Virus genome (UHGV): UHGV-0250870
Direction: 5' to 3' (one strand)
Length of the DNA stretch: 44,878 nt
Origin: a virus
Made by a program: the position numbers. Positions 12,001-15,000 of this stretch are shown one piece after another (the stretch's first letter is position 1; each line of letters starts with the position of its first letter).

Positions 12001-15000
12001 TGGTTCGGTTTGACATTGAAGAGGCATGGGCGGAGCGGCAGTTAAAGAGGGTAACGCGATAGTGTTGTTGATTTTTCCCGAATCTGTGGTAAATTTGCTC
12101 TAACGATGGGCGTTTTATGCCTGACGTTAGAAGATTTTTTACACCCCGCCGCCTGGCGGGTTTTTTATGACTGAAATCGCGTCAGTACAGTAAACGCGCT
12201 GGTGGCGGTGAATACCTGTCTTTCAGCTTGCTGGCTTTTTCGACAAGAGTTATTGGTGTGTCACGTTAACCGGAAAAGGGAAAAAGACATGCTAAAACAG
12301 CAGGATATGACAGAAACCGCCAGAGTAGTGTTTAATGAATTAAGCGTTACCGAACCGGCGACAGTCGGGGAGATTGCACAGAATACTTACCTTTCACGCG
12401 AACGCTGCCAGTTAATACTGACCCAGCTGGTTATGGCGGGTCTGGCAGACTATCAGTTTGGTTGTTACAGACGCCTTCAGTCCTGAAGGCTTTTTTATTT
12501 GTGGTAAATGGGCGGCTGGTGGGTGTTAGGGGCACTCACCAGCCATCTGCTCATGCGTCTGGATCACAAGCAAACCTCAGGCCCACTGCTTTGCGCAAAA
12601 GCAGAATGAGCCTATCAGAGACAGGCTTAATGATCCATGCTTAATACTGTAAAAATATCCAGTTGTGAGTTAATCAACGCCGACTGCCTGGAATTTATCC
12701 GGTCGTTACCCGAAAATTCTGTTGACCTGATAGTCACGGACCCGCCGTACTTTAAAGTGAAGCCTGAGGGCTGGGATAACCAGTGGAAGGGCGACGATGA
12801 TTACCTGAAGTGGCTGGACCAGTGTCTGGCGCAGTTCTGGCGGGTGCTGAAACCTGCCGGAAGTCTTTACCTGTTCTGTGGTCATCGCCTGGCATCTGAT
12901 ATCGAAATCATGATGCGTGAACGCTTCAGTGTGCTGAACCATATTATCTGGGCGAAGCCGTCCGGACGCTGGAACGGATGCAACAAGGAAAGCCTGCGGG
13001 CGTATTTCCCCGCCACAGAGCGCATTCTGTTCGCGGAACATTATCAGGGGCCGTATCGTCCGAAAGATGCCGGGTATGCGGCGAAGGGCAGTGCACTGAA
13101 ACAGCATGTGATGGCCCCGCTGATTTCTTACTTTCGTGATGCGCGCGCGGCCCTGGGGATAACGGCAAAACAGATTGCAGATGCCACAGGAAAGAAAAAC
13201 ATGGTGTCGCACTGGTTCAGTGCCAGTCAGTGGCAGCTACCGAACGAAAGCGATTATCTGAAATTACAGTCGCTGTTTGCCCGGGTGGCAGAAGAGAAAC
13301 ATCAGCGCGGTGAACTGGAAAAGCCCCACCACCAGCTGGTGGATACGTATACGTCACTGAACCGGCAGTATGTGGAGCTGCAGAGTGAATATAAGCATCT
13401 GCGGCGGTATTTTGGTGTGACGGCGCAGGTGCCGTACACGGATGTGTGGACACATAAACCGGTGCAGTTCTATCCCGGGAAACATCCGTGCGAAAAACCG
13501 GCAGAAATGCTGCAGCAGATAATCAGCGCAAGCAGTCGTCCGGGTGACCTGGTTGCAGATTTTTTTATGGGCTCAGGTTCAACGGTAAAAGCGGCACTGG
13601 CGCTCGGGCGTCGTGCGATTGGCGTTGAACTGGAGACCGGACGTTTTGAGCAGACAGTCAGGGAAGTTCAGGATTTAATCGTTTGAAACGGATGAGATTG
13701 CAGAATTAATTACGCACCATTATTATTCTGCTCCCGGCCCTTTAGCTCAGTGGTGAGAGCGAGCGACTCATAATCGCCAGGTCGCTGGTTCAAATCCAGC
13801 AAGGGCCACCATCACATACCGCCATTAGCTCATCAGGAAAGAGCGCCAGCCTTCGAAGCTGGTTGCGCGGAGTTCGGGTCCCCGAAGGCGGTCCATTATC
13901 TGTATCCTGCGTTGTTAGCTCAGCCGGACAGAGCAATTGCCTTCTAAGCAATCGGTCACTGGTTCGAATCCAGTACAACGCGCCACACTTATTTTCCCTG
14001 GCTCGCTTTTGCGGGCTTTTTTTTAAATGTCTCACAATTCAGGCGGTTGACTGTTGTCTGGTTTGCGGGGAGTTTGTTAAAAGAAACTGGCATGGTGAAT
14101 CCCCCTGTGCGGAGGGGCAATCAGCGAGTAGGTATATGGGATAATCGCGGATTCAGGTGCTGGTACTGAATTCACCGGGAGGCACCCGGCACCATGCAAT
14201 GGCACATAGCGCCACTCTCCAGCCCCTCTCCGGAGGGGCTTTTCTGTGCCGGATACATCACAGTTTCTGGAACCTTAGGTACTACAGTATCAGTCAGGGT
14301 GCTATATTTTCAGATGTGATGAAAGCCTGTCAGCAGGCAGGGCGTATCGGAAATGACCCAGTAGAGAAAACGTTGACTCAGATACCGGTGCTGAGTTACC
14401 GGGAAACCGGCATCACATGACCGCTATCCTTCCAGGCCCATCCGCTCCGGTGGGCCTTTTTACTGCAGAAAACAGGTTCCCCGTTAAATGCTATGTTGCT
14501 CACAATTCAGTAAGTTGACAGTTGCCTGTCAGACTGGGCATTTGTTAAAAAAATTTCGCATGGTGAATCCCCCTGAGCGGAGGGGCGACTGGTGACGGTA
14601 TAATCTCTGATTATCAAAACGAGAATGACGCGGGTTTAGTGGCACCGGGCTGAACTCACCGGGAGGCACCCGGCACCATGTGCATGATGATACAGATACG
14701 CGGCTTTAGCCCCTCTCCGGAGGGGCTTTCTTATGGACAAAAAAAGCCCGCGCTGGGAGACGCGGGCGGCAAGGAATAAACAATAAAACGTGAAGTAATA
14801 TTTCAGCTGGCGAATAATACCCCATAGTAATCACTCTGCGCAACTGCGCGGTCTTTTTCGAATTGCGGGCTGTAGTCTCCCTTCTGCCATTGTCCTGTAA
14901 CTTCCGGACTTCAGCCTGCTCCTTATCTGACTCACAACATTATCCCGCCCGGGAGGATTCATGGCATTTAAACACTATGACGTGGTCAGGGCGGCATCGC

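Follow-up and report, generated by a model that had tools for sequence, protein, structure and literature searches.

Why a prophage should carry a DNA methyltransferase gene with no restriction gene beside it, and how such an enzyme stays off, is the question raised by one locus of the virus genome UHGV-0250870. The DNA analyzed (the window, that is, the whole stretch of 44,878 nucleotides) is a lambdoid prophage whose gene complement includes early-region and replication genes, QueH, DUF968, RusA, Q, a lysis cassette, and genes for terminase, head and tail. The methylase gene is located between the late antiterminator gene Q and the lysis genes. It is already known and already annotated, and the new item is a folded RNA leader directly upstream of it. 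The gene itself needs no new explanation; what remains of interest is the natural role of its family and the conserved leader, which together with a linked small open reading frame (ORF) provides a concrete handle on how a harmful methylase stays off.

An allele of the M.EcoGII family

The methylase ORF begins with ATG at position 12637 and ends with TGA at 13684-13686 on the + strand, giving a product of 349 amino acids (aa). Motif IV, DPPY (residues 35 to 38), precedes the S-adenosylmethionine (SAM) motif I, FMGSG (residues 310 to 314). The order of IV before I is that of the beta class, as the preliminary description of this DNA had read it, and the profile searches agreed with that reading. 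Pfam PF01555 (N6_N4_Mtase) spans residues 29 to 340 (E = 2.3e-44; 152 bits against a cutoff of 26.7), and the PADLOC Type II methyltransferase model matched with E = 4e-167; the YhdJ-like and CcrM models of NCBIfam matched below threshold only. The nearest solved structures by sequence similarity, namely M.PvuII and, at E = 1e-25 to 1e-15, 8urk/9c3u, M.RsrI, CcrM, M.MboIIA and DpnA, are all of the beta class, and each was matched in two segments. The two segments flank a central insert that has no structural relative. The match of the ORF to the beta class is far beyond chance. The reading frame is full length and the catalytic and SAM motifs are intact, with no sign in DPPY or FMGSG of the inactivating mutation that the preliminary description had allowed for. 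A single-sequence AlphaFold2 model of the protein was unusable (mean pLDDT, the predicted score in the local distance difference test, of 42.9), and the helical segment at about residues 160 to 230 alone reached 52 to 75.

What the preliminary description did not recognize is the family to which this beta-class enzyme belongs. The window protein and M.EcoGII align without gaps and are identical at 334 of 349 positions (95.7%). The M.EcoGII sequence used for this comparison is the one given with the SUPREM enzyme (PMC11551740, Table S1), in which three misread letters were corrected against the codon-optimized DNA in Table S2. M.EcoGII is encoded by a prophage of E. coli O104:H4 C227-11 (GenBank EGT69837.1) and methylates adenine at N6 in any sequence context (Murray et al. 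2018, PMC5778455). Its paralogue in the same strain, M.EcoGI, differs from it at 16 of 349 residues (PMC5778455), a distance similar to that of the window protein. M.EcoGII and the window protein are alike in length, in motif order and in being prophage borne, and no difference falls in DPPY, in FxGxG or in the dimer-interface residues 97-110 and 116-140, two stretches that the SUPREM authors describe as invariant (PMC11551740). Of the 15 differences, 8 are in the interdomain linker, 3 in the target-recognition domain (residues 160 to 237) and 4 in the C-terminal part of the catalytic domain. Six of the residues by which the window protein departs from M.EcoGII (A148, S164, S191, A263, H273 and F278) are those of Anc291, a reconstructed ancestor that is reported to be active, and more so than M.EcoGII (PMC11551740).

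By its sequence, the ORF is an allele of the M.EcoGI/M.EcoGII family, and non-specific N6-adenine methylation is the activity to be expected of it. Because this family is a characterized non-specific adenine methyltransferase, the finding is a known rather than an open one. EcoGII is sold commercially and serves as a tool enzyme, for example in MadID, and the engineered SUPREM was derived from M.EcoGII. The family is very large on E. coli prophages, and a very similar methyltransferase has been reported for phage 1720a-02 (PMC5778455).

The preliminary description had offered two roles for the enzyme, anti-restriction or epigenetic. The second would make it a sequence-specific orphan methyltransferase, similar to Dam or CcrM, that acts on host or prophage expression in the lysogen. 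Prophage orphan methyltransferases can indeed be regulators, and the target-recognition domain holds three of the 15 substitutions relative to M.EcoGII. Moreover, the site-specific M.PflMI shares the overall predicted fold of M.EcoGII (PMC11551740), so specificity can change in the wider family. However, the charged linker that is reportedly missing in M.PflMI is present in the window protein, which shares 95.7% identity with an enzyme that is non-specific. Its gene is preceded by two terminators, and the scan lists no promoter belonging to it. Homologues in O111 Shiga toxin-producing E. coli, with 92 to 94% amino acid similarity, are listed as non-specific and as inactive under growth conditions (PMC6602927). 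M.EcoGI and M.EcoGII likewise gave no methylation signal in the lysogen, and their constitutive expression was harmful to the cell (PMC5778455). An epigenetic role in the lysogen is disfavored on account of this silence and this harm, and we regard it as improbable; the anti-restriction role is favored.

The methylase gene is solitary. The preliminary description had noted no adjacent restriction gene, and this held when PADLOC restriction endonuclease models were run against the ten neighboring proteins, within about 5 kb, without a match. When the window's ORFs of 100 aa or more, 87 in total, were scanned, the only matches apart from the methylase were two to DrmD and a weak one of an HNH protein to a restriction model. 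The HNH gene is located 6 kb downstream of the methylase, and its product is the sole weak match to a restriction model in the window. The two DrmD matches were considered as a DISARM defense system and rejected, since they are IstB/DnaC-like ATPases of an IS21 element and of the replication module: a direct scan identified one as the IstB ATPase of an IS21-family element, and the second probably corresponds to the replication ATPase of DnaC type at 6154-6900, for which Pfam likewise gave an IstB_IS21 match.

It is very improbable that the methylase is one half of a restriction-modification system with its endonuclease elsewhere. PADLOC does assign the protein to Type II methyltransferase models, and two other proteins show traces of nuclease similarity, the HNH protein with its weak REase_II match and the DUF968 protein (9808-10863) with a marginal HNHc_6 match in Pfam. 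However, the HNH ORF is located directly before the terminase genes, the usual place of a packaging-associated HNH protein in HK97-like phages, and the DUF968 protein has no PADLOC match, its position being taken by a ydfU gene in the Stx2a phage Stx2_EH2201. Restriction models match none of the remaining ORFs of 100 aa or more, and a non-specific methylase offers no site for a cognate endonuclease.

A folded leader and a small ORF linked to the methylase

The start codon of the methylase is immediately preceded by a leader that folds into five helices. P1 (UGGGC/GCCCA) closes a three-way junction with P2, a hairpin of 12 bp, and P3, a helix of 4 bp, and the hairpins P4 and P5 come next. The single-sequence fold of the leader has a z value of -4.1. 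The leader is more conserved than the coding sequence, as seen in phages whose methylase proteins are no more than 79 to 88% identical. Among the fetched loci, which range across Enterobacterales, an nhmmer profile placed it right before the start of the methylase in 59 and a covariance model in 60. Klebsiella phage NAR688, whose methylase has 61% protein identity, is one of them, with P2 and P3 fully compensated. In the Xenorhabdus and Photorhabdus relatives the full leader was not found, and just a P2-like and a P5-like hairpin were visible.

In the model-fitted alignment, which is biased toward the structure, 96.8% of the cells were paired compared with 32 to 44% in slid controls, and 14 pairs were changed on both sides compared with 3 to 8 in those controls; none of 500 shuffles reached the observed values. 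Compensatory changes were seen in an unguided MAFFT alignment as well, the closing pair of P3 being C-G 28 times, A-U 9 times and U-A 7 times. Changes from U-A to U-G are frequent, indicating that the structure is specific to the + strand and that the leader is an RNA feature. Rfam 15 contained no match to the leader, whether taken from the window or from four loci chosen for diversity.

These observations bear on the possibility that the methylase is a functionless passenger of a decaying prophage, its frame intact but never expressed. The prophage has been damaged by an IS21-family element beside the gene of a repressor-like S24 peptidase, a run of A carries a frameshift in the sialate-esterase-like gene further down, and the methylase has been lost from the related 933W-like phages. 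However, the ORF is full length with intact motifs, alleles identical to it occur in at least 12 other genomes, and the functional phages SfV, mEp460 and phiP27, together with Stx2 phages, carry the methylase. Many genera have conserved both the family and its non-coding leader, and this conservation and the compensatory changes in the leader indicate selection. A passenger without function is therefore unlikely.

No classical Shine-Dalgarno sequence is present in the leader; instead, a nearly invariant UGAUC(C/U) adjoins the AUG. The 3' region of 16S rRNA contains ...GGAUCA, which is complementary to this element. UGAUC(C/U) is also complementary to GG(A/U)CA in the loop of P3, and this complementarity is conserved, with 89% paired. 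No covariation was detected between the P3 loop and UGAUC beyond that given by conservation, and the pseudoknot is a hypothetical one. If formed, pairing of the P3 loop with UGAUC(C/U) could sequester the sole ribosome-binding element.

The sequence TGTG(G/A)AAAT is kept at the 5' edge of the leader in nearly all relatives. Its resemblance to an extended -10 element was considered as a promoter right upstream of the leader and rejected, the A at position 2 of the hexamer being not conserved and a -35 element being absent. The decamer TGTGGTAAAT occurs twice on the + strand, at 12085-12094 in the candidate late promoter and at 12500-12509 at the 5' edge of the leader.

The small ORF of 65 aa upstream of the leader gave no match in Pfam or PADLOC. 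Of 89 loci, 61 have a homologue at the corresponding position, Xenorhabdus and Photorhabdus loci among them, and homologues were found in 57 phage records. Its single-sequence AlphaFold2 model is helical and of low confidence (pLDDT 65), and Foldseek against the PDB gave no match at E ≤ 0.001. The ORF was also considered as an independent gene downstream of Q, as it appeared in phages seemingly free of the methylase. This was rejected, since two of these phages, SfV and mEp460, do carry the methylase, indicating that the small ORF and the methylase are linked.

The leader at 12505-12636 may be an undescribed cis-regulatory RNA that, perhaps with the 65-aa ORF, prevents a toxic and promiscuous methylase from being translated before the late phase of the lytic cycle; we put this forward tentatively and consider it possible rather than probable. 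The arrangement upstream of the methylase might thus guard against a dangerous enzyme in several layers, a hypothesis that follows the logic of com/mom in phage Mu. Mu and the window have in common a harmful DNA-modifying function placed late in the cascade, anti-restriction in Mu and presumably so in the window, and a structured leader over the initiation region, control by the leader being hypothetical in the window. The two systems differ in that Mom is not a methyltransferase and has no sequence relation to the window methylase, and no Com-like zinc-finger protein is encoded in the window. In Aeromonas phage phiARM81ld (locus L006, 2829-3044), the methylase start is overlapped by an ORF whose annotation is that of a Com-like translational regulator and which takes the place of the enterobacterial leader, a parallel to Mu com/mom.

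Late-operon position and proposed role

The order on the + strand is Q, a terminator, the 65-aa ORF, a terminator-like hairpin, the methylase gene, three tRNA genes, a further terminator, copies of the small RNA (sRNA) STnc100, a SASA/DUF1737 gene, and the holin, lysozyme and Rz genes (Table 1). Terminator-like sites are abundant in this region, with 14 observed in 11800-15100 compared with 3.3 by chance. The hairpin before the leader, often with a T run, recurs in almost every related locus, even where the small ORF is missing. No promoter-like site was listed on the + strand in 11800-15100 by the consensus scan. The candidate late promoter pR' has 8 of 12 consensus positions and an extended -10 element; it falls below the scan threshold and was for this reason not listed.

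Table 1. Window coordinates of the methylase, its leader and the features around them
Feature	Position	Strand	Evidence or remark
Late-gene antiterminator Q, 273 aa	11241..12062	+	PF03589, E = 5e-51; PHROG "anti-termination protein Q-like," E = 1e-111; RefSeq "antitermination protein" in homologous prophage
Candidate late promoter pR'	12068..12095	+	TTGATT, 16 nt, TGgTAAATT; read by eye, inference only
Strong intrinsic terminator, tR'-like, downstream of Q	12145..12169	+	CCCGCCGCCTGGCGGG then TTTTTTATGA
65-aa ORF, PHROG 331 (function unknown)	12289..12486	+	PHROG 331, E = 1e-37; about 150 nt upstream of methylase in most relatives
Second terminator-like hairpin	12473..12500	+	GCCTTCAGTCCTGAAGGC then TTTTTTATTT; loop holds stop codon of 65-aa ORF
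Conserved structured RNA leader, five helices	12505..12636	+	132 nt, from second hairpin to methylase start codon
Beta-class N6-adenine DNA methyltransferase, M.EcoGI/M.EcoGII family allele, 349 aa	12637..13686	+	Motifs, Pfam, PADLOC, alignment with M.EcoGII
Three phage tRNAs: CAT, Arg-TCG, Arg-TCT	13736..13985	+	ARAGORN, Rfam tRNA, RefSeq of homologous prophage
Terminator behind tRNA cluster	14000..14027	+	Four further terminator-like hairpins before next gene
HNH endonuclease, 121 aa	19588-19953	+	Weak REase_II/DpdF match, E = 1.5e-5; adjoins small and large terminase genes

This arrangement recurs in other phages. Positions 12146-14023 of the window are 94.7% identical to Stx2_EH2201, and the similarity begins at 12146, inside the terminator that follows Q (blastn). 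In Stx2_EH2201 a different Q (127 aa) is located upstream, and the same tRNA trio is followed by stx2AB. The order of Q, small ORF, methylase, and then holin or stx genes is common to SfV, mEp460, Citrobacter phiNP, phiP27, and Stx2a and Stx2c phages. The methylases of 1720a-02, phiP27, SfV (orf48) and mEp460 (gp53) occupy the same slot, from Q to the lysis or stx genes, and have the same small ORF and leader. The methylase homologue of phiARM81ld, at 55% identity, again stands just before the holin gene. The terminator, 65-aa ORF, structured leader, methylase and tRNA genes form a portable cassette, which lambdoid phages carry downstream of Q and ahead of their lysis genes, or of stx where present.

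The preliminary description had placed the methylase in a Q-dependent late operon. The position downstream of Q, the shared strand, the terminators and the lysis genes further on are all as that placement supposes; the dependence on Q is deduced from how the genes are ordered and from the terminators. That the gene would be silent in the lysogen is suggested by the pair of terminators before it and by the lack of a listed promoter. In related phages, production of Stx2 from the same transcription unit depends on Q and pR' (see also PMC7547250).

The reading that we favor, at a probability of roughly 0.7, is that an enzyme of the M.EcoGII family methylates adenines of the phage DNA late in the lytic cycle, under the control of Q, as a protection against restriction. 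It builds on what was observed here, namely the assignment to the family, undamaged motifs, a solitary gene and its conserved place at the head of the late operon, and it takes non-specificity, silence in lysogens and toxicity from the M.EcoGII literature. Murray et al. have proposed that the enzyme is turned on at prophage excision and shields the phage DNA from restriction (PMC5778455). The product would be a dimeric, beta-class, SAM-dependent N6-adenine methyltransferase that methylates adenine in any sequence context. In the lysogen, terminators past the late promoter would silence its gene, and the leader, folded over a weak ribosome-binding site, would probably add to the silencing. Upon induction, Q-modified RNA polymerase would pass the terminators, and the methylase would be made late in the lytic cycle. 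Replicating phage DNA would then be methylated at many adenines ahead of packaging. Once injected into the next host, such DNA would be expected to resist Type I, Type III and many Type II systems for which N6-methyladenine (m6A) is the protection signal. From the observed and published properties we infer the Q dependence, the methylation of virion DNA and the anti-restriction benefit.

Several points weigh against this anti-restriction role. The literature searched contained no demonstration of hypermethylated virion DNA or of restriction protection in phages that carry the methylase. Plasmid DNA heavily methylated by M.EcoGII transforms E. coli very poorly (PMC5778455), and m6A-dependent Type IV restriction enzymes would select against the methylase. 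The late promoter was placed by eye only, and the non-specificity of the window allele is extrapolated from an enzyme that is 95.7% identical. Furthermore, 933W-like Stx2a phages retain just a C-terminal remnant of 33 aa, indicating that the methylase is dispensable; "methylase" ORFs of 50 aa have also been noted (PMC10462455). As to the natural biology of the family, no tests of virion hypermethylation, of how the methylase is kept off, or of the position of the cassette upstream of stx were found in the literature searched.

The tRNA genes beside the methylase raise the possibility that the substrate in vivo is RNA, that is, co-transcribed phage tRNAs, rRNA or mRNA, and that the enzyme modulates translation during lytic growth. 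Many phages have the methylase together with three tRNA genes, and M.EcoGII methylates RNA in vitro (PMC5778455); its activity on RNA is, however, about 1% of that on DNA (V0 of 0.12 versus 11.12; PMC11551740, Table S3), and no tRNA genes stand beside the homologues in SfV, mEp460, phiNP and phiARM81ld. A preprint claims that a different methyltransferase of Stx phages, M.ECPA8_3172P with PNB-2, is a 16S rRNA methylase (10.1101/2023.09.20.558713). That enzyme is described as gp5. Among the PA-series phage records listed (PA11, PA12 and PA36), the best match of the window methylase is only the 33-aa remnant between Q and the tRNAs. Methylation of RNA as the natural function is, on this balance, improbable. 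Kinship of the window methylase with M.ECPA8_3172P, the claimed 16S rRNA methyltransferase of Koudelka, was considered separately and rejected, given its description as gp5 and the match of the listed PA-series records to the C-terminal remnant only.

Methylation of phage DNA against restriction, the role preferred here, has also been presumed for other phage-borne orphan adenine methyltransferases, such as T4 Dam, P1 Dam and M.EcoVT2Dam of Stx phages. These Dam-like enzymes belong to the alpha class. Unlike the window family they are specific for GATC, and in Stx phages their genes are located in another region of the genome.

Distribution and other features of the prophage

At least 12 complete E. 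coli genomes contain a gene with 100% nucleotide identity to the methylase gene, annotated there as "DNA-methyltransferase" (WP_000935516.1). Matches covering at least 80% of the gene were found in 1,917 of 5,426 complete E. coli genomes (about 35%), mostly on the chromosome. In a genome scan, the identical protein was present in the type strain of Escherichia albertii, and relatives with 64 to 81% identity occurred in many genera of Enterobacterales. A close DNA match was found in 38 phage records, the best being 1720a-02 with 95.5% nucleotide identity. Thirty of these 38 are Stx2-converting phages, in agreement with the statement of the preliminary description that Stx-family prophages carry such enzymes. 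The Stx phage versions of the methylase are 352 aa long and have a different C-terminal tail.

The tRNA with anticodon CAT (13736-13811, + strand) was called Met by ARAGORN, and RefSeq annotates the identical gene as tRNA-Ile (ileZ-like, lysidine modified). With the two Arg tRNAs it makes up the rare-codon trio typical of Stx phages. STnc100 sRNA (Rfam RF02076) is represented on the + strand by two strong copies and a weak one, at 14061-14251, 14290-14463 (weak) and 14529-14738, with scores of 165 and 136 bits for the strong copies and 30 bits for the weak one. Each copy ends in a terminator-like hairpin, and together they fill the slot that stx2AB occupies in Stx phages; Stx2_EH2201 has a single STnc100-like stretch directly after stx2B.

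The SASA/DUF1737/DUF6645 gene at 14961-16815 (+ strand), sialate-esterase-like and of the NanS-p type, is split into two ORFs near 15423. The split results from one extra A in a run of seven (A7) relative to the intact 1,854-nt gene of E. coli JE86-ST05, and the gene is either a frameshift pseudogene or the product of a homopolymer sequencing error.

The IS21-family element is located at 1745-4154 (- strand), with an IstA-like gene at 2562-4061, IstB at 1810-2565 and an apparent 6-bp target duplication. Some 12 bp separate it from the start of the S24-peptidase gene (LexA family, repressor-like), upstream of which it is inserted, and it is missing from the otherwise about 98% identical prophage of JE86-ST05. 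Its insertion may disturb immunity control.

At the right end of the prophage, an ORF of 150 aa (43831-44283, + strand) matches Pfam R_equi_Vir, the virulence-associated protein family of Rhodococcus equi, with E = 5e-34 and is a possible moron gene. A homologue of the epoxyqueuosine reductase QueH (8287-8973, + strand; E = 1e-65) is located between the replication genes and Q. QueH is a tRNA-modification enzyme, here encoded on a prophage that also bears tRNA genes.

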